13,131 nucleotides of DNA from a virus (taxonomy: Duplodnaviria > Heunggongvirae > Uroviricota > Caudoviricetes): IMG/VR virus record IMGVR_UViG_2703719355_000018, one strand, 5' to 3'. The notes beneath the pieces are model-generated. The model was not told where the DNA came from, made no database searches, and was given only the letters and a program-made list of their open reading frames with translations. Position 1 is the first letter of the stretch. Every line of letters starts with the position of its first letter. The translations under genes were made by a program, and so were the position numbers. Of the stretch, positions 1 to 12,121 are shown piece after piece.

Positions 1-1260
1 ATGGCAAAGCTGACAGATATCCAAATCAAGTCATGGATTAAGGCAGGAGAGCGCTTCGAGGGGCGCTCTGACGGCAACGGGCTATACCTTCGCTATCGAG
101 CGGGGGATAAAGTACCTGTATGGCGTTTTCGATATCAGTTCGCTGGGAAATCACGGGTAATGCTTATTGGATCTTATAGCGAAATATCCCTTTCCAAAGC
201 ACGGGAAATAGCCAAGGAATTATCCGCACGTGTAGCCCTGGGCTTCGATGTCGCCGGGGAAAAGAAAGCGCGAAAAGCGGCTGCTATAGAAAAGATGGAG
301 CGGGAGAAAAACGCGCTTCGTGTGTCAGAGCTAGCAACCGAGTATTTCGAACGGCAGATTTTGGGACGCTGGAAACATCCCGATCTTCTGCGCCGGAGAA
401 TCGATAAGGATATCAACCCACATATTGGCAACATGAAGATAGAGGACGTAAAACCCCGTCATATTGATGCGATGCTACAGAGCGTTGTTGATCGTGGCGC
501 TCCAACCGTAGCTAATGACGTTCTGCGCTGGACTAAACGCATATTCGATTATGCTATCAAGCGTCATGCACTGGAATTAAACCCAGCTGGAGCATTTGAT
601 CTGTCAGACGCTGGCGGGCAGGAAAGTAGCCGTATGCGCTGGCTGACCCGTGAAGAACTTATACGTTTTTTCCAAGCTATGCGCACTGCAAAAGGATTCA
701 GCCGCGAGAACGAGCTGACCATGAAGCTAATCCTTTGCCTGTGTTGTCGCAAAATGGAGCTGTGCGGTGCTCAGTGGGATGAATTCGACCTTGATGAAGC
801 AGTGTGGCATCTACCAGCAGAACGCGTTAAAAACGGCGACGCTATTGATATACCACTACCTCCACCTGCGGTTGGTTGGTTGAGAGAGCTTCGCACTATC
901 GCGGGCAGTGGGAGTAAATGGGTTCTCCCCGCGCGGAAGATGCAACACCGCATGATTCCCCACATTCAGGAAAGCACACTCCCCGTGGCGCTGGCAAAAG
1001 TACGCCGCGAAATGCCAGAAGTACCAAACTTCACAATTCACGATTTCAGACGTACCGCCCGCACCCATTTAGCGGCGTTGGGTGTCGATCCCGTAGTCGC
1101 AGAACGTTGCCTGAATCACCGCATTAAAGGCGTTGAGGGTATCTACAACCGCCACCAGTACTTTGAAGAACGACGGGCAGCCCTGGAACTGTGGGCGGGG
1201 CTTCTGGTTTCGCTTGAACGAGGGGAAAACTACAATGTTATTCCTTTATCTAAAATATAA
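1..1260 (+). CDS. int: Tyrosine recombinase / integrase, P4 family (419 aa)
   Basis: ORF begins at window position 1. N-terminal arm-binding-like region (GNGLYLRYRAGDKVPVWRFRY) and C-terminal catalytic region with HDFRRTARTH and YNRHQY typical of P4-type integrases. Confidence 0.93.
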   Translation: MAKLTDIQIKSWIKAGERFEGRSDGNGLYLRYRAGDKVPVWRFRYQFAGKSRVMLIGSYSEISLSKAREIAKELSARVALGFDVAGEKKARKAAAIEKMEREKNALRVSELATEYFERQILGRWKHPDLLRRRIDKDINPHIGNMKIEDVKPRHIDAMLQSVVDRGAPTVANDVLRWTKRIFDYAIKRHALELNPAGAFDLSDAGGQESSRMRWLTREELIRFFQAMRTAKGFSRENELTMKLILCLCCRKMELCGAQWDEFDLDEAVWHLPAERVKNGDAIDIPLPPPAVGWLRELRTIAGSGSKWVLPARKMQHRMIPHIQESTLPVALAKVRREMPEVPNFTIHDFRRTARTHLAALGVDPVVAERCLNHRIKGVEGIYNRHQYFEERRAALELWAGLLVSLERGENYNVIPLSKI

Positions 1261-1276
1261 AAGTTTTGTTTGAAGG

Positions 1277-1379
1277 TATTCACCCTATTCACCTTTTTAA
1301 TTAACTTCATGATTTTAAATAATAAAAAAGGGTGAATACTTACAGTAAAACTAATCACCTTAGTATTCACCTGTTCACC
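1277..1379. repeat. Iteron cluster: TATTCACC at 1277-1284, 1286-1293 and 1364-1371, inverted copy GGTGAATA at 1331-1338, TGTTCACC at 1372-1379 (crr-like)
   Basis: Five copies of the octamer read directly in 100 bp of AT-rich intergenic DNA. From memory, TGTTCACC is the P4 type I iteron bound by the alpha protein at ori and crr. Confidence 0.6.
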
Positions 1380-1452
1380 TTCTAAAGCTGCTGTGGCTGC
1401 TCCCCTTGCCCGAAAACACGCCAGCCACCAGCGTTAAAAAATACAAAAATCA

Positions 1453-1476
1453 TCATCGTCCAGATCTGGACGATGA
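1453..1476. repeat. Perfect 24-bp palindrome TCATCGTCCAGATCTGGACGATGA
   Basis: Exact reverse-complement symmetry read directly; lies in the int-to-cargo intergenic region. Confidence 0.8.
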
Positions 1477-1679
1477 CGCCAGCACTCACCCTACAAAACA
1501 ACCTAACTTATTGATTTCAAAAGTAGAGAAAATCTGCTTTATGCCACTAGCTCGCACCCGTCCCCAAAAAGAAAAAGCCCGCGCTGGAGACGCACGGGCC
1601 TTTGGGTACCGATAACCATGTTTGGAATCAGCTCATTGAGTTCTGACCTCAATTTGCATGTTATCACAAGAAAAACACA

Positions 1680-1720
1680 TTGCAATAATTGCAACAACGA
1701 ATATTATCATTGCGTATAAT
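1680..1720 (+). promoter_or_regulatory. Putative promoter/operator of the plus-strand cargo operon: 15-bp palindrome TTGCAATAATTGCAA (1680-1694) and -10 TATAAT (1715-1720)
   Basis: Perfect palindrome and consensus -10 hexamer about 40 bp upstream of the 1761 start codon; the -35 is weak. Confidence 0.4.
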
Positions 1721-1760
1721 GAAACATAAATATCCGATAGAACATACTGAGGTCTGACCG

Positions 1761-2312
1761 ATGAAAGATATTACAAACATCGCAGTGACTGGCGAAGATG
1801 GCGTGGTGACGTATGCCGACGGCAGTAAAGAGGAGTTCCAGTGCAGCGGAACCGTTGCGACCATCATTGCAAGTCTTGCAACGACACTCGAGAAAGAACG
1901 CAAAATGCGCATCGCCACCGGCGACCGCCTGCGCCGCATGTACACCCGCGACAGTGATATGATTTCCCGCGGTTTGAATGGCACGTCTGCTACTTCCACG
2001 GCACCGACAGCAATGAATGCTGAGTTCATGCGTCTGGTACGTGCCGTAGCGCCGAAATACGATTCAGCACTGCCCGACGCCGACCCGCGCATCGTTGCTC
2101 TCGATGTGCTGCGCTACGCCCCTGCTGAGGCGTTCAGCGCCGTACACCCTACCCCAATGTCAGAAATCCAGCTGGATCAGGCTATCGATATACTCGAGCA
2201 GGTTGGCGACTACATGAAAGCAAACAATATCGCTCCGAAAATAATTTCTACAGGAGACGCAATCCGCAGCATCAATGCTGACAACGCCACCTTCTGGGGC
2301 AAAAAACACTAA
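1761..2312 (+). CDS. Hypothetical protein (183 aa)
   Basis: Long ORF with GAGG Shine-Dalgarno 8 nt upstream; first gene after the promoter-like region; no family recognised. Confidence 0.6.
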   Translation: MKDITNIAVTGEDGVVTYADGSKEEFQCSGTVATIIASLATTLEKERKMRIATGDRLRRMYTRDSDMISRGLNGTSATSTAPTAMNAEFMRLVRAVAPKYDSALPDADPRIVALDVLRYAPAEAFSAVHPTPMSEIQLDQAIDILEQVGDYMKANNIAPKIISTGDAIRSINADNATFWGKKH

Positions 2313-2318
2313 AGAGAT

Positions 2319-2513
2319 ATGAGCATGCCTATCTATGACCCGAAATTAGCCGCAGGCAACCCACAGCGCGCCCACCGCCCGATGCTGACCCGTCAGGATC
2401 TTGAAGCGGCAAAGGCACGCAATAACTTCGATCGCCAGAGTCGCAACCTGCAGCAACTCAACGAATCAAATGCACGGTTCTGGAGTGAACAGAATGAGAA
2501 AGCCAAACGTTAA
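2319..2513 (+). CDS. Small hypothetical protein (64 aa)
   Basis: Starts 6 nt after the stop of the upstream gene, same strand; weak RBS; alternative start at 2325. Confidence 0.4.
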   Translation: MSMPIYDPKLAAGNPQRAHRPMLTRQDLEAAKARNNFDRQSRNLQQLNESNARFWSEQNEKAKR

Positions 2514-2670
2514 GCCGGTCCTGCTGTCCGCCGAGCAGATGCAGGCCATACGCAACATTCAGGAACGTGAACGCCAGCGCTCCAATCTCGGCGTCGCTCC
2601 CACCGTTCACCAGATTGCCCGCGGCCTCATGGCTAAGGCTCTGGCCTCACTGGCAAGCGAGGGCGTGTAA
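2494..2670 (+). CDS. Small hypothetical protein (58 aa), possibly ribbon-helix-helix-like DNA-binding
   Basis: GGAG RBS 8 nt upstream of the ATG at 2494; overlaps the previous stop by 20 nt and its own stop overlaps the next start (TAATG). The 2401 start in the ORF track is rejected. Confidence 0.45.
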   Translation: MRKPNVKPVLLSAEQMQAIRNIQERERQRSNLGVAPTVHQIARGLMAKALASLASEGV

Positions 2671-3341
2671 TGGGCGCCATTCACCAGATATATGAGCAGG
2701 AAATGTTCTATAACTGGATAGGCGATGGTAAACGATGTGTAGCATTCCACGAAGCGGGCCATGCAGTAGCCGCATGGCTTATTCGCTTAGATATGCAGGT
2801 TATCGCCATTATGGATGAATCCGGCTACGTTGCTGGCGAACATGTACATGAAGCCCAGTGTTTGGGCATTGTTAAACACAGCATAATCCACAGCCACGAT
2901 CTCAGGCGTTTGCGGGAGAGTAAATCTGGTGTAGTTGGGCACGATGGCAAAGTTATCCCTTTCATACGCTACTACGCGGAAGGTATAAAGCGCGATGCAA
3001 CAAAGGCCGCTTTTGTAGCCCTCGCTGGACCAGTAAGCGAAGCCCTTTACGAAAATAACGAAATTTTCAATAAAAAGTATTCACTCCCTCACCGCTATGA
3101 CATGGCTAACGTAAATGACATGCTCGATTTAATATGTGCCACGGATAAGCAAATTAACAGGAAGTTAATGCTTTCTAAACTTGTTGAAAAGACCAAATTC
3201 CTCATGACTCAATACTGGCCGGAAGTAGGAAAAATAGCGCATTTGCTTGAGCGGGATAACATTGTTAATGGGCGCGATGTTAGCTCGCTAATCGGCCTCA
3301 ACGTCATTGACCGGGCAACGCCATTTTTGCTGGAGGAATAA
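2670..3341 (+). CDS. Predicted zinc metallopeptidase, standalone FtsH/M41-like HEAGH motif (223 aa)
   Basis: VAFHEAGHAVAAWL closely resembles the FtsH zinc-binding segment, with a downstream ALAGPVSEALY segment; no AAA ATPase domain; GAGGG RBS; start overlaps upstream stop. Confidence 0.7.
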   Translation: MGAIHQIYEQEMFYNWIGDGKRCVAFHEAGHAVAAWLIRLDMQVIAIMDESGYVAGEHVHEAQCLGIVKHSIIHSHDLRRLRESKSGVVGHDGKVIPFIRYYAEGIKRDATKAAFVALAGPVSEALYENNEIFNKKYSLPHRYDMANVNDMLDLICATDKQINRKLMLSKLVEKTKFLMTQYWPEVGKIAHLLERDNIVNGRDVSSLIGLNVIDRATPFLLEE

Positions 3342-3417
3342 CCCCTGCCCGAACTCATTCGACGATTTATTCCTCGGCGGGTAAGCTATACCGGTCTACC
3401 TAACTGCGAGCACAAGG

Positions 3418-4476
3418 ATGATGAATAATTTAATCAATCGCATTGCTTTAACCTTTCTAGCGTTAGTACTCACAGGCTGCACTGCGGGGAAAATCGATCC
3501 CGCAAAAGCGTTAACACAAATGCATATCGTCAAAAGTGATGACTATAAGAAGCGCCCCGGCTGGCCTGCGTTAGTTCGTCTGGGTACTGACGATTGTGAG
3601 ACATACAAAAGTGGCGGCGGTAGCCTCTTTAAGTGGGACGGGCTGACGTGCAACGACAAAAGCATTATCCTGGCGGTTAATAGCAAACCACAGACCATTC
3701 CAGTGTTCTACGCTGCTTACCATGAATACGGGAGCTATGGGGTCGGGGAACTATCCAATTTTGACAATAGCACCCGAACAGGTGAGGAAGCCTCGAAGAT
3801 TCTGGTTAACCTGACCACAGCATTGAACAATCCGGCAAAAGTTGACGCTATCTATGCTGACTATGAAAAGGATCGTTGGAGCATGGGACTTGGTACAGTC
3901 AACGAAAGCGATTTTAAAAAGAGCCTGGCTACTTTTGCTCAGGAACGGGATAAGCTCGCCTCTGAATACCATAGATTACGTGACGCAAACCAAAAGAGAT
4001 ACCTAGCTGAACGGGACGAACGAATCAAACGTGAGAAAGAAGAGGCCATGGCCTCTGAAAAAACGATTGATCTCGTGTTATGGCAGAATCCAACAGTTGA
4101 GCAACAGATGGTTGTTGACGCTCTGCACACTATTAAATTCACAATAAGAAACGATGGCGTGGCATACGCTAACGGTCGCCGATTTATGTCAATTGCCGGG
4201 CTGGAATATCTCAGGAATAGCCTAGCTCTGAGTATGGAGTCATGTTCAGACGCTGGAGCATATGTTGGTGATACGGCATTAAATCGCGCATGTATTCAGG
4301 GCTTGGCGAGGAACATTGTTGAGTGGGGGAAAACCGCCAACGACCGTTCTATTTCAGACAGAGCATGGAACGCAGCCGCAATGGATGGCAGCATTAACTA
4401 CAACCCAATCAAGTATGAAATCCTGTTTTCACATTGGGCAGGAATGGCCCGTGTCTACTCTGCTCGTGGATATTAA
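3418..4476 (+). CDS. Predicted lipoprotein of unknown function (352 aa)
   Basis: N-terminal signal peptide ending in lipobox LTGC (MMNNLINRIALTFLALVLTGC); AAGGA RBS; followed by an intrinsic terminator. Confidence 0.7.
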   Translation: MMNNLINRIALTFLALVLTGCTAGKIDPAKALTQMHIVKSDDYKKRPGWPALVRLGTDDCETYKSGGGSLFKWDGLTCNDKSIILAVNSKPQTIPVFYAAYHEYGSYGVGELSNFDNSTRTGEEASKILVNLTTALNNPAKVDAIYADYEKDRWSMGLGTVNESDFKKSLATFAQERDKLASEYHRLRDANQKRYLAERDERIKREKEEAMASEKTIDLVLWQNPTVEQQMVVDALHTIKFTIRNDGVAYANGRRFMSIAGLEYLRNSLALSMESCSDAGAYVGDTALNRACIQGLARNIVEWGKTANDRSISDRAWNAAAMDGSINYNPIKYEILFSHWAGMARVYSARGY

Positions 4477-4526
4477 ACATTGCGCTTCGAACTGATAAAT
4501 TTAAGCTTAATCAGTACATTACTGTT

Positions 4527-4552
4527 AGCCCGCATTTTAGCGGGCTTTCTTT
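4527..4552 (+). terminator. Rho-independent terminator after the lipoprotein gene
   Basis: Stem AGCCCGC/GCGGGCT with 6-nt loop, followed by TTCTTT. Confidence 0.6.
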
Positions 4553-4618
4553 AGTTGAGCTTTGTACAAGATGTAAATTTACATCCTGATTATCCAGTGC
4601 GCCGTAAAAGCTGGCAAT

Positions 4619-5731
4619 CTATTTAACTAAACGTAAATGTGACGGGCGTATCCCCGATTCCTGGGTACTCGATTTTCCACCATTGATAGCTTCCATAAAG
4701 AAGCTGTTACTGAAAGTAAGTGCACTCACTTCGTCCGCTGGTAACCTCAACTGCTCGAGAATATCTCCCCTTTTAACGCCTTTGCTGCGTAGGGCTGAAA
4801 ACACTTTATCCAGCACTAATGACTTTTCACGTTCAGCAATCCCTTGAGGCTCACTCGTACGATATCCACGGCGAGCAAGTTCTATCGATAGCTGTCGATA
4901 ATGCCATTCGGTAGATAAACCGACATCAAACGTACGGCGCACCAAAGCCGCCAATGATACCCGCCAGTTCTTTTTTAACGAGATGAGTAGATCAAGCGAT
5001 GGCATTCTTGGCACTAAAGCTAAAATACTACGCTCAGGCATCAAAAAGGCCGATGCGAATCGATCTGCATCCTGCTCAGCTTGGCGGCCGTTGTTAGTTG
5101 AATGTTTATGGAGAACCAAGTGCCCCAGTTCATGAGCTGCATCGAATCGACTACGCTCCGGCGTTTTCATTGTATTCAAAAGCACAAAAGGTTTTTCATC
5201 CATCCAGAACGAAAAGGCGTCTACTTCAATACAATTTTCCGCGAGAGAGAACACACGGACCCCATTAGCTTCAAGAAGATGGACCATGTTAGAGATGGAT
5301 AATTCACCTATCCCCCAACTTTCTCTAACCACGCGAGCAGCTCGCTCAGGCTCAGAATAACCATCGAAACTACAATCAGGTACATTAGGTTTAGGAAGCT
5401 TAAACTGCCCGTCAATCCAAGCTGATAGCTCTTGCGCGAGCTTTCCGGCTCCGAGTGCTGAGTCCCTTTTCTGTGCCGTCAACTTTGTCATTGCACGGAA
5501 ACTAACGGCTTCTGGCGACAGAGTAGGTACATCCCTGTCGAAGAAGAACTCAATCGGATAGCCCAGAACAGCAGAAATCCGTTCCATGGTATCGCTGGCT
5601 ATGGCATCAAAAATCCCTGCTTTCTCGTAATTCGAAATCGTCTTACTAGTCAATTCTGTAGCTTCAGCTAAAGCTCTTTGTGTCAGGCCTCTCCGTTCTC
5701 TGGCTATACGTAAACGCTCTGAATTAAACAT
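4619..5731 (-). CDS. Fused XRE-family HTH / ImmA-IrrE (COG2856) zinc metallopeptidase regulator (370 aa)
   Basis: N-terminal HTH (LRIARERRGLTQRALAEATELTSKTISNYE); HExxH as HELGHLVLH, followed by the family-typical FASAFLMPE segment. Confidence 0.85.
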   Translation of the reverse strand: MFNSERLRIARERRGLTQRALAEATELTSKTISNYEKAGIFDAIASDTMERISAVLGYPIEFFFDRDVPTLSPEAVSFRAMTKLTAQKRDSALGAGKLAQELSAWIDGQFKLPKPNVPDCSFDGYSEPERAARVVRESWGIGELSISNMVHLLEANGVRVFSLAENCIEVDAFSFWMDEKPFVLLNTMKTPERSRFDAAHELGHLVLHKHSTNNGRQAEQDADRFASAFLMPERSILALVPRMPSLDLLISLKKNWRVSLAALVRRTFDVGLSTEWHYRQLSIELARRGYRTSEPQGIAEREKSLVLDKVFSALRSKGVKRGDILEQLRLPADEVSALTFSNSFFMEAINGGKSSTQESGIRPSHLRLVK

Positions 5732-5740
5732 GGTGCATAT

Positions 5741-6460
5741 TTAGCCTGTTTTTAAAATGTCGAGATCGATATCCGGTGTAAACTGCGGTACATCACCGTT
5801 CTGAACAATAGGGTCAGGTTGATGAGGAGCAATAATTAAACGTGTGGAGAAGGCATTAACTACATTCTTGTTATTGTATGAAATCGGGCGTGAAAGCTCA
5901 GCTCGGATCCCCACGCGCTCATCCCCGTCAATTTCATAAAAATCGTAAAGTAAAAACCATAAGTCCAGTCCGATTTTATTCGGTAGCAGTGGTATAACAT
6001 CACCTTCCGGCATGTCTAAATCCAGCTTAAGCTGGCTATCATCCAGGATAAGCTCACCCTGACCCGGGGTGTTATTATGGATTAACCCCATCAGCTCACA
6101 AGTAAAATCACCTTTCTTCATGCGAGACTCAGGAAATCCATGAACCAAACCTGTCTGATCACACCCCCGGCAGAGGTAAAGGGCAACTTTATCACTTACA
6201 GTCAGTTCAACATTTCGCAGAGACAGACGTTTGTAGCCTTTCGGAGCCAGAATGTCGCGGGCTGCACTCACCCCCTCACCATAGAAATATTGCCCACGTG
6301 AGGTCTTGGGGTGATTCTGAGTCGTCGAATAACGACCAGACAAGCCACGCTCAAGAATACGCCTGAGATCACTTTGGCTCAGATTCAGGGACTGCAGGTA
6401 GGATTCAACATCGTCAGGATCTGCCAAAACAATGGTTTTTGCGAGATTATGAGAGTACAT
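5741..6460 (-). CDS. Hypothetical protein (239 aa), first gene of a two-gene operon with the HTH-ImmA regulator; candidate effector/toxin
   Basis: AAGAGG RBS 8 nt upstream of the ATG; stop lies 9 nt before the downstream start; no family recognised. Confidence 0.65.
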   Translation of the reverse strand: MYSHNLAKTIVLADPDDVESYLQSLNLSQSDLRRILERGLSGRYSTTQNHPKTSRGQYFYGEGVSAARDILAPKGYKRLSLRNVELTVSDKVALYLCRGCDQTGLVHGFPESRMKKGDFTCELMGLIHNNTPGQGELILDDSQLKLDLDMPEGDVIPLLPNKIGLDLWFLLYDFYEIDGDERVGIRAELSRPISYNNKNVVNAFSTRLIIAPHQPDPIVQNGDVPQFTPDIDLDILKTG

Positions 6461-6489
6461 CGGAAAAGCCTCTTATATATTTTCTATTT

Positions 6490-6518
6490 TTTATACCTCA
6501 TTTGAGGTTTAAAAACAA
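6490..6518 (-). promoter_or_regulatory. Sigma70-like promoter for the minus-strand operon with an embedded palindromic operator
   Basis: On the minus strand: -35 TTGTTT (6513-6518), 17-nt spacer, -10 TATAAA (6490-6495); 14-bp palindrome ACCTCA-TT-TGAGGT (6495-6508) fills the spacer. Confidence 0.5.
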
Positions 6519-6526
6519 GAAAATCA

Positions 6527-6542
6527 CTGTATAAAATCTCAG
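6527..6542. promoter_or_regulatory. LexA-like box CTGTATAAAATCTCAG (CTG-N10-CAG) in the divergent intergenic region
   Basis: Left half matches the LexA consensus CTGTATAT; right half keeps only CAG. Confidence 0.3.
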
Positions 6543-6666
6543 AGATAATCGACAGATTAGAGAGTATTATCCATATTGAGGCTATCCCGACGGGGAGAAA
6601 AGCGACTACGCCTTGCCGCCTGCCTCCCCCATTATCTCAAGGCGGTGACGTGTAAGGCGAACGTGC

Positions 6667-7485
6667 ATGAGTGGTTTTGTTTTTCCTTTCGAGTTTCAAC
6701 CAGTGCCAGAGGCATTGGCAATCCTGAACGACATGGATATTGCTCCCTTTGAAATAACCGAAAAACACCTAGAAAGCTGGTGGGCGGAGGGGAAAATTCA
6801 ACTGTGCTTTAACTGGGGTAGATTCTGGAAAGCTGGCTTAGCCGACGAACTGGCAAAAACAGAAGGCTACGCAGAATTAGGGGCGAAAGAAAAGATCACT
6901 GCGCTCAATGCTGTATCCGCTTCCCCCGAGGCTAACATCAGTCTTGTCGTGCCATCTTACAGCGATTTAAGTTTTATCTGGCGCGGGCATAGCGACGATC
7001 CACTCCCCTGTATCGAGGCCAAACCCTACGGGCTTGATCAACCTTTTGTTATCAAACGCGTTCCTCACACCTGCGAGGACTATTGCGATTACGGTACGCA
7101 GCATTGGGAAAAACTTTACCATTCGCTGCACATTTCGAGTATGGTGCTGCCGCGTGCTGAAGCTGAAAAAATTTATTATCTCTGCAACCCTACAGCTATT
7201 CCAGGCATGGACGAAAAGACGGCATCTGCAGTATCTGCGAAAACGGTTAACTATCTGGCCACTGCTTTAAAAGCTTTTATTCACATCCATTACGGGGCTG
7301 ATGTGGCGGACAACCTGCGCAAACATCTTGAGGATCCCACCAGTGATATACGGAAAGACTTTGCGAATAAAGGGATCAAAGCGCCAGGTGGAAAAGCGCT
7401 GGCCAGCCATCTGAAAAATATTCTGATTGAAGTTTTACCCGCGCTCGACAACGTCGATGTGGAGAGTGACGCTGGTAATACATAA
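6667..7485 (+). CDS. Hypothetical protein (272 aa), Cys/His-rich central segment
   Basis: Long ORF divergent from the minus-strand operon; AAGG RBS-like sequence upstream; HTCEDYCDYGTQHW segment; no family recognised. Confidence 0.6.
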   Translation: MSGFVFPFEFQPVPEALAILNDMDIAPFEITEKHLESWWAEGKIQLCFNWGRFWKAGLADELAKTEGYAELGAKEKITALNAVSASPEANISLVVPSYSDLSFIWRGHSDDPLPCIEAKPYGLDQPFVIKRVPHTCEDYCDYGTQHWEKLYHSLHISSMVLPRAEAEKIYYLCNPTAIPGMDEKTASAVSAKTVNYLATALKAFIHIHYGADVADNLRKHLEDPTSDIRKDFANKGIKAPGGKALASHLKNILIEVLPALDNVDVESDAGNT

Positions 7486-7546
7486 CCCCGGAACATTCCA
7501 TATATTCCGACGCATTAGAATATTCCAGAGCCCATCACCATAACCT

Positions 7547-7584
7547 TGCGATTACCTTCTCACTCAATAGCAGGTAATCGCATG
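7547..7584 (+). promoter_or_regulatory. Stem-loop covering the alpA ribosome-binding site and start codon
   Basis: 10-bp inverted repeat TGCGATTACC (7547-7556) / GGTAATCGCA (7573-7582), 16-nt loop; the 3-prime arm contains the AGGT SD-like motif and the A of the ATG. Confidence 0.5.
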
Positions 7585-7794
7585 AAATCGCAAACTTTCA
7601 CCTTTCCCACCAATGGCAACGCACGAGCCAAACAAGTGGCGCACTATCTTGGAGTGCATATCAGCACCGTATGGCGCTATGCAAAACGTCCTGATTTTCC
7701 AAAACCCCACCAGTTAACCGACGGCGTGACCGTCTTTGACGCCGCAGCTATTCGCCAATGGAACAAGCAAAAAACCGGGGGTGAGAATGCTTAA
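7582..7794 (+). CDS. alpA: AlpA-family transcriptional regulator / excisionase-like protein (70 aa)
   Basis: VAHYLGVHISTVWRYAKRPDFPKP matches the AlpA/phage-excisionase HTH signature; start taken at the internal ATG at 7582 rather than 7546. Confidence 0.85.
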   Translation: MKSQTFTFPTNGNARAKQVAHYLGVHISTVWRYAKRPDFPKPHQLTDGVTVFDAAAIRQWNKQKTGGENA

Positions 7795-8078: not shown

Positions 8079-8170
8079 CGCGATTTTATCAAGAGATAAA
8101 TACAGCGAAGCCCGGCAGTGCGGGAACACTAACCGGGCCTCTGACCAACAACGTTACGGAGACTAACGCT

Positions 8171-8371
8171 ATGGCTAAGCCGCAGTGTACCCAAACTCAC
8201 CCCAAATATCAGTATCGTTTTATGGCGCTCGATCGCGCTGACCGTCAGGCGAAACCCTGCAAAATCATTGTCGAGGCCACCAGCGAGCACGAAGCGCGTA
8301 AAGTGCTGGCTCCTCACTACATCCTGTCACTGTCCGCCGTTTTGCCAGTTCAGGAGGTGAGCCATGTTTAA
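8171..8371 (+). CDS. Small hypothetical protein (66 aa), first gene of the replication operon
   Basis: GGAG RBS 9 nt upstream; stop overlaps the next start. The 211-aa ORF from 7736 is rejected. Confidence 0.45.
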   Translation: MAKPQCTQTHPKYQYRFMALDRADRQAKPCKIIVEATSEHEARKVLAPHYILSLSAVLPVQEVSHV

Positions 8372-9040: not shown

Positions 9041-9261
9041 TGCCACGCAAACATCGCTCATCAAGCAACCTGATCAAATTAATGGAACGCCAGAAAGGTA
9101 TAGGGCGCGACGATATCCAGATCGCAGATAATCGCCCTACATTCATGCCGTACGAGCCGAACGGAACCTACGCTACAAACCGCCATACCCGCCGTATGCT
9201 ACGCAAGCTCCACGGCATCCAGGCAAAAAGAATGTGTGATCTGAAAGGAGGTCAGAAATGA
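9040..9261 (+). CDS. Small basic hypothetical protein (73 aa)
   Basis: GAGGGAGG RBS; start overlaps the previous stop (TAATG); stop overlaps the primase start (ATGA). Confidence 0.55.
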   Translation: MPRKHRSSSNLIKLMERQKGIGRDDIQIADNRPTFMPYEPNGTYATNRHTRRMLRKLHGIQAKRMCDLKGGQK

Positions 9262-11672
9262 GTGGATTCGATCACCTGATGGAGCAGGGGCAGAAACGCA
9301 CCCCTGCTCGTTTTACTGCAAATAGCTTTTCTGACCTGTGCAACGCTATTCTATCGCATCGTGTGCAAATTTCCATCACACAGGAAATGACGGATGAAGA
9401 ACGGCGCAAAGAAAAGCAGAAACTGTACTGGTTCTCGGCAACTACCCAGCAGGACGGGCAGCGACGTAAACCCGAAAACATGGCACCGTGTGCTTTCGGT
9501 ATGCTGGACATTGACGGCAGCACTCCCGGTGCAATCACAGCACTTGTACAGGTGTTCCGGCGATACTCAATGCTGGTGTACCAGACGGCCAGCTATACGG
9601 CGGATGAACCTCGTCTGCGTATTGTGTGCGAGCTTTCCCGAGCGGTTGAATCTGACTACCGCCGAGCGACAGGCGAATCCATAGAAACTTTGTTGATGCA
9701 GGAGGCTGGATTCTCATTCGCCAGCCTGGCGGATAAGAAAGCACGCTGGGAGAACGGCAGCGATTATGTTGTCTTTGACCGCAATGTATACGGCGCTCAA
9801 AGCTATTGCTACTGTCCACACACTGGAGCGAAAGCCCAGAATTACGCGGGCGCGGTAATCGACGTAGGGGCGTTACCGGAACCCGCCCAGCCACCAGCGA
9901 AGGCGGCCAAAAGCAAGGCAAAGAAACAGCGCCAGCGTGACGCCGCGGCGGTAATAGATGCTGATTTTGACGATCTGAGCGCCGGACCGGATAACTTCCT
10001 TATCGCCGACCTGCGCAGCGCACTCTGGTTTCCCTCCATGCTGCAAAAGGCATGGGACAATGGGGCGTGGATTGAGCAGGGCTACCGCCTTGCATCTCTC
10101 AAAGGCACCGATTTTGAGGACGACGCGCGGCAACTGTGGGTCGAGTGGTCATTGACCGCAGCGGATGGCTGGCCTGATGAAGAACTTGATGAAGTCGCGG
10201 CACAACGCTGGAATGGTCTCGCCCCTGACAAAACCAGCTATAAAGCTATTTTTACTGATGCTCAGGCGCAGGGGTGGAATAATCCGGGCAAATGGCGAGC
10301 AAAGGCCGCGTACATTGAGAAAATGGCCCCCAGCACACGCGGTGAACTGCTGGCGCAATATTACGGCAACGTATGCCTGAAAGCTGATGGCAACATGGTT
10401 TATCACTATACCGGGCAGGGGTGGGAGCACATCGCCGATGCCGAGTTGCGCCGCCAGCTTTCGCAGATTTTCAAAGATAACGGGGTCCCCTTTACACCGT
10501 ACGAGGTTAAAAGCGCGATTGAGGCTATGGGAATGCTTCTGCCTTTAATAGGAGAAACTCCTCGTAACCTGATTGGCTTTGCCAACGGCGTTTATGATCT
10601 CGAGGCGCAGCGATTCCGCCCCCACTGCCCAGACGATTGGCTGACCAGCCATAACGGCGTTGAATACACGCAGCCGGTTAAAGGCGAAACCCTGAAAAAC
10701 AATGCCCCAAACTTCTGGCGCTGGCTGCATCATTCCGCAGGGGGCGACTTCGACAAAATGGAGAGAATCAAAGCCGCTCTGTATATGGTGCTGGCAAACC
10801 GCTACGACTGGCAACTGTTCATCGAGGTTACCGGTGCTGGTGGCAGTGGTAAAAGCGTGTTCACGGGTATTGCACGTATGCTGACGGGCGAACTACACGC
10901 CACCAGCGGCACAATGGAGGACATGGACACCGCGCGCGAACGCGCATCTTTTGTCGGAAAAAGCCTGATCACCCTACCCGACCAAGCAACATATACGGGT
11001 TCCGGGCCGGGTATCAAGGCTATAACGGGCGGCGACGTGGTAAGGATCGACCCAAAGCACGAAAAGCCATTCCATACGGTTATTCGCGCCGTTGTCATCG
11101 CAACAAACAACGAACCTATGCGTTTCACCGAACGACAAGGCGGGATATCGCGGCGCCGGGTTATTTTCCCGTTTAACCATGAAGTGCCGGAGGCGGAACG
11201 TGATCCCCATCTGCTCGATAAAATTAAAGCCGAACTGCCGGTAATCGTCCGTGGTCTGCTGATTGACTTCGAACAGCCAGGCAAAGCCAAATCGCTACTT
11301 ATCGCGCAGCGTGATTCAGCGGAAGCGCTGCAGGTGAAGAACGATAACGACCCGATGTATGGCTTTTGCTCTTACCTGCTAGGTTTGCCGAATCCCGAGG
11401 GCATGTACATGGGCGATGGGCGCATGGCGCGAGAGCCACGCATCTACCTCTATCATGCTTATCTGGCCTATCTGGAAGCCTACGGTTATCAGAGAACCCC
11501 CACCCTACCGAAGTTCAGCGGAGATTTACGGGACACGCTCAAAGCCTTTGGTATTACTCTGGACAGTAAAAAGAGTAAAAAGGGCAAAAGATATAACGTC
11601 AATTTGTCTGACAGGGCACAAGAATGGCTGGGAGAAGACGAACTCTCAGCTGTGCCCGACACATTGCAGTAA
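9258..11672 (+). CDS. DNA primase-helicase, P4 alpha-like phage/plasmid type (804 aa)
   Basis: Walker A GAGGSGKS followed by a P-loop NTPase region (VVIATNNEP) in the C-terminal half; size and position after alpA as in P4-like elements; AGGAGG RBS. Confidence 0.88.
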   Translation: MSGFDHLMEQGQKRTPARFTANSFSDLCNAILSHRVQISITQEMTDEERRKEKQKLYWFSATTQQDGQRRKPENMAPCAFGMLDIDGSTPGAITALVQVFRRYSMLVYQTASYTADEPRLRIVCELSRAVESDYRRATGESIETLLMQEAGFSFASLADKKARWENGSDYVVFDRNVYGAQSYCYCPHTGAKAQNYAGAVIDVGALPEPAQPPAKAAKSKAKKQRQRDAAAVIDADFDDLSAGPDNFLIADLRSALWFPSMLQKAWDNGAWIEQGYRLASLKGTDFEDDARQLWVEWSLTAADGWPDEELDEVAAQRWNGLAPDKTSYKAIFTDAQAQGWNNPGKWRAKAAYIEKMAPSTRGELLAQYYGNVCLKADGNMVYHYTGQGWEHIADAELRRQLSQIFKDNGVPFTPYEVKSAIEAMGMLLPLIGETPRNLIGFANGVYDLEAQRFRPHCPDDWLTSHNGVEYTQPVKGETLKNNAPNFWRWLHHSAGGDFDKMERIKAALYMVLANRYDWQLFIEVTGAGGSGKSVFTGIARMLTGELHATSGTMEDMDTARERASFVGKSLITLPDQATYTGSGPGIKAITGGDVVRIDPKHEKPFHTVIRAVVIATNNEPMRFTERQGGISRRRVIFPFNHEVPEAERDPHLLDKIKAELPVIVRGLLIDFEQPGKAKSLLIAQRDSAEALQVKNDNDPMYGFCSYLLGLPNPEGMYMGDGRMAREPRIYLYHAYLAYLEAYGYQRTPTLPKFSGDLRDTLKAFGITLDSKKSKKGKRYNVNLSDRAQEWLGEDELSAVPDTLQ

Positions 11673-11985: not shown

Positions 11986-12009
11986 TCTTGTACCCAAGAT
12001 TGTACCCAA
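11986..12009. repeat. Tandem direct repeat, two units ending in TTGTACCCAA (11988-11997 and 12000-12009)
   Basis: Read directly in the AT-rich junction between the element and dinD; function unknown (att remnant or binding site). Confidence 0.4.
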
Positions 12010-12121
12010 TAGAAAAAATAGAAAATAAAAACTCAGCAATAGCAGCGATTGGTTACACTACTCAACATTCAGATTCAATTGAGTAACTCGTAACACTAAT
12101 TCTTACTTTTCAGCCTTCACA

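Follow-up and report, generated by a model that had tools for sequence, protein, structure and literature searches.

The int-alpA interval of a PICI-like satellite in Escherichia coli: a predicted RosmerTA pair, a variable gene slot, and an accessory five-gene cassette

Two described kinds of satellite come closest to the element studied here, which lies in a stretch of 13,131 nucleotides (nt) from IMG/VR virus record IMGVR_UViG_2703719355_000018 (the whole stretch is called the window below). [quoted passage not shown] The layout of Gram-negative phage-inducible chromosomal islands (PICIs), such as EcCIMP1 and EcCICFT073, has also been described (PMC11773190). Among defense systems, the closest match to genes of the window is RosmerTA, defined as a phage defense toxin-antitoxin pair in which the antitoxin contains a zinc peptidase and the toxin is of variable type (10.1101/2022.05.11.491447). 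A deletion of rmrA was not obtainable, possibly owing to toxicity (10.1101/2022.05.11.491447), and a second member of the family was later shown to be protective against specific coliphages (PMC10440598, NetFlax).

A chromosomal island of E. coli DEC5B (O55:H7) matches the window at 99.3% identity, and between the end of int at 1260 and alpA the window carries eight open reading frames (ORFs), every one of which (8/8) is annotated in RefSeq copies. The boundaries of this interval and the hairpin that divides it are as follows.

1-1260, plus strand: tyrosine integrase gene int, which bounds the interval on the left (Pfam Arm-DNA-bind_3, Phage_int_M, and Phage_integrase)
4527-4546, unstranded: hairpin and T run between the convergent genes g5 and rmrA
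7582-7794, plus strand: alpA, right boundary of the interval (Pfam Phage_AlpA, 7.7e-7; the start is the RefSeq annotation at the DEC5B locus, and a TTG at 7546 is also possible)

A preliminary description of the same DNA had arranged the eight genes in three transcription units, and this arrangement holds up. The strands give one unit of g1 to g5 (plus), one of rmrT and rmrA (minus), and one of g8 (plus), in agreement with the RefSeq annotation, the hairpin at 4527-4546, and promoter-like sites at 1661-1707 and 6508-6577. The region has no more such sites than shuffling would lead one to expect, so they are suggestive at most. Purifying selection was seen in seven of the eight genes (g1 to g5, rmrT, and rmrA), both small ORFs (62 and 58 amino acids [aa]) included, with dN/dS between 0.03 and 0.26 against diverged copies in fifteen comparisons, two of which, including the sole comparison for rmrA, had saturated dS. 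Because of these ratios, we regard the interval as made up of real genes. Any part of it is present in 55 of 5426 complete E. coli genomes, and the whole interval is present in 10 of them. We consider it probable that the interval is a mosaic of three independent units, a RosmerTA pair, an int-alpA RNA motif with g8, and a g1-g5 cassette, and not one unknown system.

The RosmerTA pair and the variable segment around it

Two adjoining genes on the minus strand, preceded by an inverted repeat, give the interval a named system.

4619-5731, minus strand: rmrA, 370 aa, RosmerTA antitoxin with an XRE helix-turn-helix (HTH) and an M78 (ImmA/IrrE) zinc peptidase domain, motif HELGH
5741-6460, minus strand: rmrT, 239 aa, RosmerTA toxin by profile, 9 nt upstream of rmrA
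6479-6524, unstranded: 22-nt inverted repeat, candidate operator, 19 to 64 nt upstream of rmrT, 86% complementary, with 2 nt between the arms

Judged by profile matches, the pair at 4619-6460 is a RosmerTA system. RmrA matched PADLOC profile PDLC03949 with an E value of 6.3e-151 over residues 1 to 370 (profile positions 1 to 363 of 363), and Pfam placed HTH_3 at residues 7 to 63 (4e-9) and Peptidase_M78 at residues 154 to 266 (9.5e-21). RmrT matched PDLC03935 with an E value of 1.1e-52 over residues 9 to 237 (profile positions 3 to 205 of 207); it had neither a Pfam match nor a PDB sequence match. All of the sequence-level features of the family were found, namely an antitoxin with HTH and M78 (HExxH) domains, an adjoining RmrT-family gene, and a same-strand operon. 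The operon is bicistronic, with the toxin gene first and a gap of 9 nt, an order that is the commoner one in the family (58%; PMC10440598). The rmrT gene also appears to be maintained, with a dN/dS of 0.03 against a 77%-identical copy. Two points weigh against the assignment: membership of the pair is judged from profile similarity alone, and the RmrT subfamily to which it belongs, PDLC03935, is one without known activity.

The preliminary description had recognized no named system in the interval. Scanning the eight proteins against the defense models of PADLOC-DB v2.0.0 (dated 2023), a check it had proposed, corrects that statement for RmrA and RmrT and leaves it standing for the other six proteins, so that a match to described systems, which speaks against a block of wholly unnamed genes, exists for two of the eight. 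With candidate PDC families included, PADLOC gave no match at an E value of ≤0.1 for g1, g2, g3, g4, g5, or g8 and none at ≤0.01 for the positional counterparts of these six genes in other elements. Pfam, NCBIfam, PHROGs, and PADLOC scans together returned no family for g1, g2, g3, g5, or g8 and, for RmrT, none besides its PADLOC match.

If the pair behaves like the RosmerTA members that have been tested, RmrA would hold the toxin RmrT in check, and phage infection would upset the balance between them, letting the toxin halt growth and abort the infection. The inverted repeat at 6479-6524 is a candidate operator for the HTH domain of RmrA, which would probably also repress its own operon at this 22-nt palindrome.

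The pair is rare: of the 5426 complete E. coli genomes, 11 have it, ten within a full-length copy of the island and one, at 77% identity, in an unrelated island with an integrase by ffs. Its position can be compared in sister elements that occupy the same site in E2348/69 and AUSMDU00014361. By local blastn, window positions 1 to 3329/3356 (int through g4) are 99% identical to both, the sequence from 7538 onward (alpA onward) is 97 to 99% identical, and between these conserved flanks the one match is 6576-6678, at 79%, which leaves 3357-7537 as the variable segment. In this segment, E2348/69-type elements lack g5, carry a 226-aa protein in place of g8, and have, in the same position and orientation, a RosmerTA pair of another subtype, with RmrA matching PDLC03951 (3.5e-125) and RmrT matching PDLC03937 (8e-16). 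The RmrA proteins of E2348/69 and the window are only 27% identical. Elements at yicC in Salmonella keep g1 to g4 at 90% nucleotide identity and combine the second RosmerTA subtype, as in E2348/69, with yet another protein (239 aa) at the g8 position. Where g5 would be, the Salmonella sister elements (loci L009 to L012, 10759-12082) have four small genes, one of which is a second AlpA-family gene (66 aa) in the opposite orientation.

By these alignments, the RosmerTA slot and the g8 slot vary independently within 3357-7537, and g1 to g4 behave as backbone, not as swapped cargo, in the yicC element family. Comparing the int-alpA interval among related elements, as the preliminary description had suggested, thus divides its proposal of a cargo region with an anti-phage role: accessory DNA does differ between sisters at 3357-7537 and does include RosmerTA, but the stretch from int through g4 is conserved and g1 to g4 look like backbone. 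What the comparison brings out is a RosmerTA slot in which one subtype replaces another although the elements are otherwise 99% identical, a clear case in nature of a defense system exchanged for one of its own kind in a PICI-like satellite. The annotation of the island is also corrected, its sole recognizable immune system being a rare RosmerTA subtype.

It is very improbable that all eight genes form one large new multigene defense system, even though they form an unbroken run between int and alpA, are intact, and, where testable (7/8), show purifying selection. RosmerTA occurs alone in the ffs-linked island, g1 to g5 occur without RosmerTA or g8 in the tRNA-Gly islands described below, and g1 to g4 occur with another RosmerTA subtype and another g8-position gene in E2348/69 and Salmonella. 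The single-system reading is contradicted because the three units distribute independently.

The int-alpA RNA motif and the gene slot behind it

The third unit of the mosaic starts with an RNA motif that recurs in other loci.

6575-6642, plus strand: int-alpA RNA motif, Rfam RF02996, 41.1 bits against a gathering score of 35.8
6667-7485, plus strand: g8, 272 aa, from a small protein family whose ends are conserved and whose middle varies
Locus L002, 8757-8824; locus L009, 14184-14251; locus L007, 948-1017: int-alpA RNA elsewhere

Three outer-stem pairs of the window copy are noncanonical, and the motif also scores above threshold in E2348/69, Salmonella, and one Dickeya satellite. In the window it ends about 25 nt before the start of g8, and in all four loci (4/4) the distance from its end to the start codon of the variable ORF or ORFs upstream of alpA is 16 to 26 nt. 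Rfam files this RNA as a small RNA (sRNA). Given the 16- to 26-nt spacing, a cis-acting 5' leader fits better than a free-standing sRNA, and the sequence context suggests that the int-alpA RNA is the leader of a hypervariable gene, which in the window would be g8. A literature search for the int-alpA RNA returned nothing; its leader-like placement makes its function testable.

The gene that follows belongs to a small family, with relatives in 56 clusters at an E value of ≤1e-3 in a HMMER search of 1.84 billion representatives. Across the family alignment, the N-terminal ~45 aa and C-terminal ~70 aa are conserved and the middle is variable. The proteins that take the place of g8 in sister elements are its remote relatives, that of Salmonella being 23% identical (E value of 2e-4); an identity of 38% over the C terminus was also seen among these counterparts. 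A 27%-identical homologue adjoins a HigBA pair on a 16-kb Arsenophonus plasmid that also carries a VapE-type primase and head and packaging genes. A PDB sequence search with g8 gave nothing meaningful. The idea that g8 might be a third RosmerTA gene is ruled out: it is not a RosmerTA component, because the 77%-identical copy by ffs lacks it.

Instead, g8 may be a fast-evolving occupant of a fixed slot in the element's own alpA regulatory region. This reading draws on position alone, which counts against it, as does the fate of one candidate feature: the impression from the alignment that the N terminus might be an AlpA- or excisionase-type HTH found no Pfam support in 20 family members.

The g1-g5 cassette

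The remaining five genes follow int and two hairpins.

1451-1478: second hairpin left of g1
1573-1603, unstranded: G+C-rich terminator-like hairpin, left edge of the g1-g5 cassette
1661-1707, plus strand: two overlapping sigma-70-like promoter candidates upstream of g1, 9/12 matches each
1761-2312, plus strand: g1, 183 aa, with a conserved core at residues ~85 to 165
2325-2513, plus strand: g2, 62 aa (RefSeq annotation; dN/dS of 0.25; no family match)
2494-2670, plus strand: g3, 58 aa (dN/dS of 0.10 to 0.22; its stop overlaps the g4 start, ATGA)
2670-3341, plus strand: g4, 223 aa, predicted stand-alone M41-like zinc metalloprotease
3418-4476, plus strand: g5, 352 aa, predicted exported lipoprotein

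The exact segment 1572-4486 of the window recurs at 93% nucleotide identity in unrelated tRNA-Gly islands, where it lies at the far end, after genes for primase, ProQ, and PerC. The copied segment begins at the terminator-like hairpin, takes in the promoter-like sites, and stops 10 nt beyond the end of g5, and this recurrence in unrelated islands is why we consider the cassette to have moved as a unit. We take g1-g5 to be a five-gene operon and an accessory module of Enterobacterales satellites, with promoter-like sites and with hairpins at both ends.

Other elements carry parts of the cassette or carry it in another order. In E. coli FLI21, a g3-like gene and then g4, after primase, are the only part present, and in about 30 further E. 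coli genomes the match is confined to g4 and the 3' part of g3. Dickeya and Yersinia elements have g4 and g5 adjacent after primase and no g3-like ORF; the Yersinia g4 is 29% identical to that of the window, and a single nucleotide separates it from g5. In Klebsiella satellites, g1 stands alone after primase. At least eight IMG/VR contigs and E. coli ET791 share the order int, g5, isrK/C4 RNA, icd, primase, g1, g2, g3, g4, in which g5 and g1-g4 are about 6 to 7 kb apart in the same element. A DUF2280 gene, which we take to be terS-like, usually comes next. This layout spans three primase types.

One product of the cassette, g4, is weakly similar to M41 protease domains along the whole domain. 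Its HEAGH motif lies at residues 27 to 31, with H27 and G30 invariant and E28 and H31 nearly so in the homologue alignment, and D144 is invariant and a candidate third zinc ligand. M41 profile matches occur at both ends of the domain, and residues 20 to 210 matched AFG3L2 (PDB 6nyy) with an E value of 1.3e-3. Neither an AAA+ ATPase module nor a membrane anchor was found, the match covering the protease domain only, and on these alignments g4 is M41-like and not an FtsH. Its recognizable relatives come almost only from mobile elements of Enterobacterales. A tblastn search of INPHARED phages with g4 gave no match, a single-sequence scan of IMG/VR gave nothing, and when genome contigs were scanned, matches to the FtsH motif drowned out the rest. 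A literature search for an M41 peptidase in satellites or PICIs found nothing. Among E. coli sequences, the 226-aa protein P0024 (66 contigs) is a g4 variant in which the N-terminal ~45 residues are replaced and HEAGH is lost, by alignment a naturally inactivated or repurposed form. A 352-aa neighbor in a gammaproteobacterial metagenome-assembled genome, met in the contig scan, proved unrelated to g5.

The g5 sequence has a putative signal peptide that ends in a lipobox, LALVLTGC(21)TAGK, that fits the pattern L-x-[GA]-C, and C21 is invariant in 35 homologues; in the ET791 homologue, the lipobox reads IVAC. Five cysteines are invariant among homologues, and g5 is probably an exported, disulfide-bonded lipoprotein. 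It had no meaningful PDB sequence match and no structural relative in fold searches.

Less can be said of the other three. PDB sequence searching with g1 gave nothing meaningful, its structure model was poor, and a fold search with that model matched nothing. The ends of g1 (residues ~170 to 183) and g2 (residues ~47 to 62) are alike, N-A-x-F-W plus basic residues (INADNATFWGKKH and NESNARFWSEQNEKAKR). The tryptophan of this motif hardly varies among g1 homologues, and the g2 of ET791 retains the motif, which could serve both proteins for docking or recognition.

The overlap of the g3 stop with the g4 start raises the possibility that these two genes form a toxin-antitoxin- or ImmR/ImmA-like switch in which a DNA-binding g3 is controlled or cleaved by g4. 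The g3-like gene with g4 is the sole cassette part in FLI21, with ~30 other E. coli genomes matching the same stretch, and pairs of HTH and M78 proteins such as RmrA and ImmR/ImmA offer an analogy (PMC10440598). We nevertheless consider such a switch unlikely. Considered as a ribbon-helix-helix protein, g3 had an hhalign probability of 0.4% against Arc, CopG, and Mnt templates, whose sequences were entered by hand, and no Pfam match at an E value of ≤10; it matches no family at all in the scans above, and g4 occurs in Dickeya and Yersinia with no g3-like ORF.

As a whole, g1-g5 is a moderate lead. It may be that g4 and g5, and probably also g1 to g3, are functionally linked, for which the best argument is co-inheritance in differing layouts. 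A g4 homologue was present in 11 of 11 evaluable g5-bearing IMG/VR loci, a raw count among related satellites with no correction for phylogeny. Several observations pull the other way. Because all carriers are related satellites, the co-occurrence of g4 and g5 could reflect shared ancestry. Elements of the E2348 type, those of Salmonella, and those of the FLI21 type have g4 without g5, and in a Photorhabdus prophage, a g5 homologue of 40% identity occurs by itself in the tail module, so the link is not an obligatory one. The Pfam Peptidase_M41 score of g4 (E value of 3e-4; 21.1 bits) is below the cut-off of 29.9. In addition, g1, g2, g3, and g5 are silent in PADLOC, Pfam, PHROGs, and NCBIfam, and fold searches were empty for g1 and g5.

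Since the genes stay in the same element though differently placed, we tentatively propose that g4 and g5, with g1 to g3, are an undescribed satellite module for either exclusion and defense or helper manipulation, in which a cytoplasmic protease is coupled to an envelope lipoprotein; we hold this with clear reservations. With low confidence, g1-g5 would act on the interplay of phage and host, g5 at the envelope through surface exclusion or receptor masking and g4 in the cytoplasm by cleaving a phage or host protein. As g4 has no unfoldase, its substrate would need an accessible loop or an unstructured region.

In the first form of this proposal, g1-g5, or at least g4-g5, is undescribed anti-phage or superinfection exclusion cargo, with g5 blocking adsorption or DNA entry and g4 serving as an intracellular effector or regulator. 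The promoter-like sites, the bounding hairpins, and the transfer of the unit at 93% identity between unrelated satellites are in keeping with cargo, as are the dispensability of individual genes and the position of the cassette next to RosmerTA in the accessory region. The predicted export of g5 would suit an exclusion protein, and its homologue in the prophage tail module is a lone moron; Cor, Llp, and similar exclusion lipoproteins typically have their genes in such modules. Other satellites have g5 immediately upstream of the isrK/C4 immunity RNA locus, which suggests that it may be expressed in lysogeny. There is also a precedent from P4 hotspots, where six of eight randomly chosen loci with no assigned function gave phage protection (PMC13586616). 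Set against this are the silence of PADLOC, candidate PDC families included, the failure to find any known defense fold, the conservation of g1-g4, unswapped, in the yicC family, and the usual place of g1-g4 right after primase and, in at least six elements, before the DUF2280 gene in the same operon orientation, which looks like that of life cycle genes.

This last observation is the starting point of the second form, in which g1-g5 are satellite life cycle genes that exploit or manipulate a helper phage, for example, by regulating helper late genes, by proteolysis of a helper repressor or morphogenetic protein, or by shielding progeny from receptor-bearing debris. The placement of g1-g4 between primase and the DUF2280 gene holds in many satellites and across three primase types, g1 alone follows primase in Klebsiella, g1-g4 are conserved across the E. 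coli and Salmonella yicC elements, and these satellites are often integrated inside a prophage morphogenesis operon. But the modules reassort, with g5 missing from the E2348 type, g1 and g2 missing from the FLI21 type, and g3 missing from Dickeya and Yersinia. Moreover, the operon in the window lies outside the alpA-primase operon with promoter-like sites of its own, and the element has no terS-like or structural gene and no known helper phage. We regard the cargo and the life cycle readings as about equally likely and each as doubtful when taken singly.

Relatives of this satellite family also offer a lead on integration sites, since they sit inside head gene operons of prophages. The relative in ET791 (locus L057, NZ_CP100906.1, 3799868-3811553), which consists of int, alpA, g5, icd, primase, g1 to g4, and the DUF2280 gene, is inserted in the operon that holds the head genes of a lambdoid prophage, with a DUF2213 gene on one side and a DUF2184 gene, presumably the major capsid gene, on the other. 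In Klebsiella (loci L024/L025), relatives lie between the capsid cement gene and the tail genes of a prophage. Such insertions suggest that these satellites target the morphogenesis operon of a phage that may serve as helper.

The element and its place among described systems

The island lies between yicC and dinD, and besides DEC5B, nine complete genomes carry it over at least 80% of the window length. Its further landmarks outside the interval, and a cluster of repeats inside it, are the following.

1277-1371, unstranded: four exact copies of the 8-mer TATTCACC, clustered and with one of them inverted, candidate sites for protein binding
9258-11672: primase, 804 aa (Pfam D5_N, DUF5906, and Pox_D5)
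11995-12013, unstranded: attachment site (att) core, attR, a 19-nt direct repeat of sequence upstream of int

The direct repeat TTGTACCCAAGACTGTACC is found as the attL core 61 nt upstream of int (in locus L001) and at window positions 11995-12013; in L001, its copies at 3922-3940 and 15995-16013 are 12,073 nt apart, giving an element of 12.07 kb. Other recognizable genes of the element code for a DUF3950 protein and an Icd-like protein. Between alpA and primase, five short ORFs have no Pfam family, and a sixth, on the minus strand, is the DUF3950 gene. No tRNA gene was found in the window. No Pfam family for psu, delta, sid, or ash/epsilon was found among the ORFs of the element. Because psu, delta, sid, and ash were undetected, we class the element as PICI-like and not as canonical P4-like in the SatelliteFinder sense; it has the Gram-negative PICI layout of int, alpA, primase, and att repeats within ~10 to 20 kb, without structural or lysis genes. 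The preliminary description had transferred the anti-phage hotspot next to int of P4-like elements to this DNA, but the published hotspot lies between int and psu-delta-sid and does not apply directly, because the element is not P4-like.

All four window copies of TATTCACC fall at 1277-1371, just downstream of int, with 0.41 copies expected by chance per window and a count of four reached in 0 of 200 shuffles. The region is conserved in sister elements, and the copies are probably binding sites for some protein. Some 1.35 kb separate the cluster from the attL core, a long distance for classical arm-type sites. On the minus strand at 8104-8176, a subthreshold match to a SymR-like antisense RNA (30.5 bits; gathering score, 61) overlaps the Icd-like cell division inhibitor gene at its first bases and also the region upstream of it. 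Related satellites (loci L006 and L043 to L052) have isrK and C4 antisense RNA at the equivalent place, and no C4/CI immunity RNA was detected in the window, though relatives have one. At the same locus by dinD, FLI21 carries a different element with a P4-family primase (locus L006, 8678-10675), followed by two tandem dinD copies.

Compared with described PICIs and P4-like satellites, the element shares int, alpA, an Icd-like gene, a D5/P4-family primase, a size of ~12 kb without structural genes, att direct repeats, and accessory and defense genes near int. It departs from the seven-gene P4-like definition in having no detected psu, delta, sid, or ash/epsilon and from other PICIs and satellites in having neither a PerC gene nor a terS-like gene. 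The int-alpA RNA shares with RF02996 an above-threshold score and a position between int and alpA; it differs from an sRNA, as it is filed, in being placed in 4/4 loci as a leader would be, ahead of a variable ORF. The RosmerTA pair resembles the described systems (Millman et al. 2022; NetFlax) in its two-gene operon, toxin-first order, and HTH and M78/ImmA antitoxin, and its RmrT is unlike the pore-forming RmrT of Gordonia phage Kita since no membrane segments were predicted from a reading of its sequence.

The g1-g5 cassette stands further from what has been described. With Peptidase M41 (FtsH/AFG3L2), g4 shares HEAGH in the context AxHEAGHAvaaw, a downstream Asp, and a C-terminal helical segment, and it aligns with AFG3L2 over ~190 residues. 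Unlike FtsH, it has only 223 aa, no ATPase, no transmembrane anchor, and a subthreshold Pfam score. With described exclusion lipoproteins (T5 Llp, phi80/N15 Cor, and TraT), g5 has in common that it is a predicted lipoprotein encoded by a mobile element, but it has no sequence or fold similarity to them and, at 352 aa, is much larger. A module of an M41-like protease and a lipoprotein is not described in PADLOC v2.0.0 or the searched literature, which includes a 2026 survey of P4 hotspots where Bandua, Aernus, Toga, Reve, and Crouga received their names. A putative homologue of the FtsH protease domain without an unfoldase recurs with an orphan lipoprotein in satellites of three primase types, and if g4 and g5 work together, they would represent a new kind of satellite-borne function. 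The RosmerTA pair belongs to an already named family; the g4-g5 module and the leader behavior of the int-alpA RNA, unproven as they are, are the worthwhile leads.

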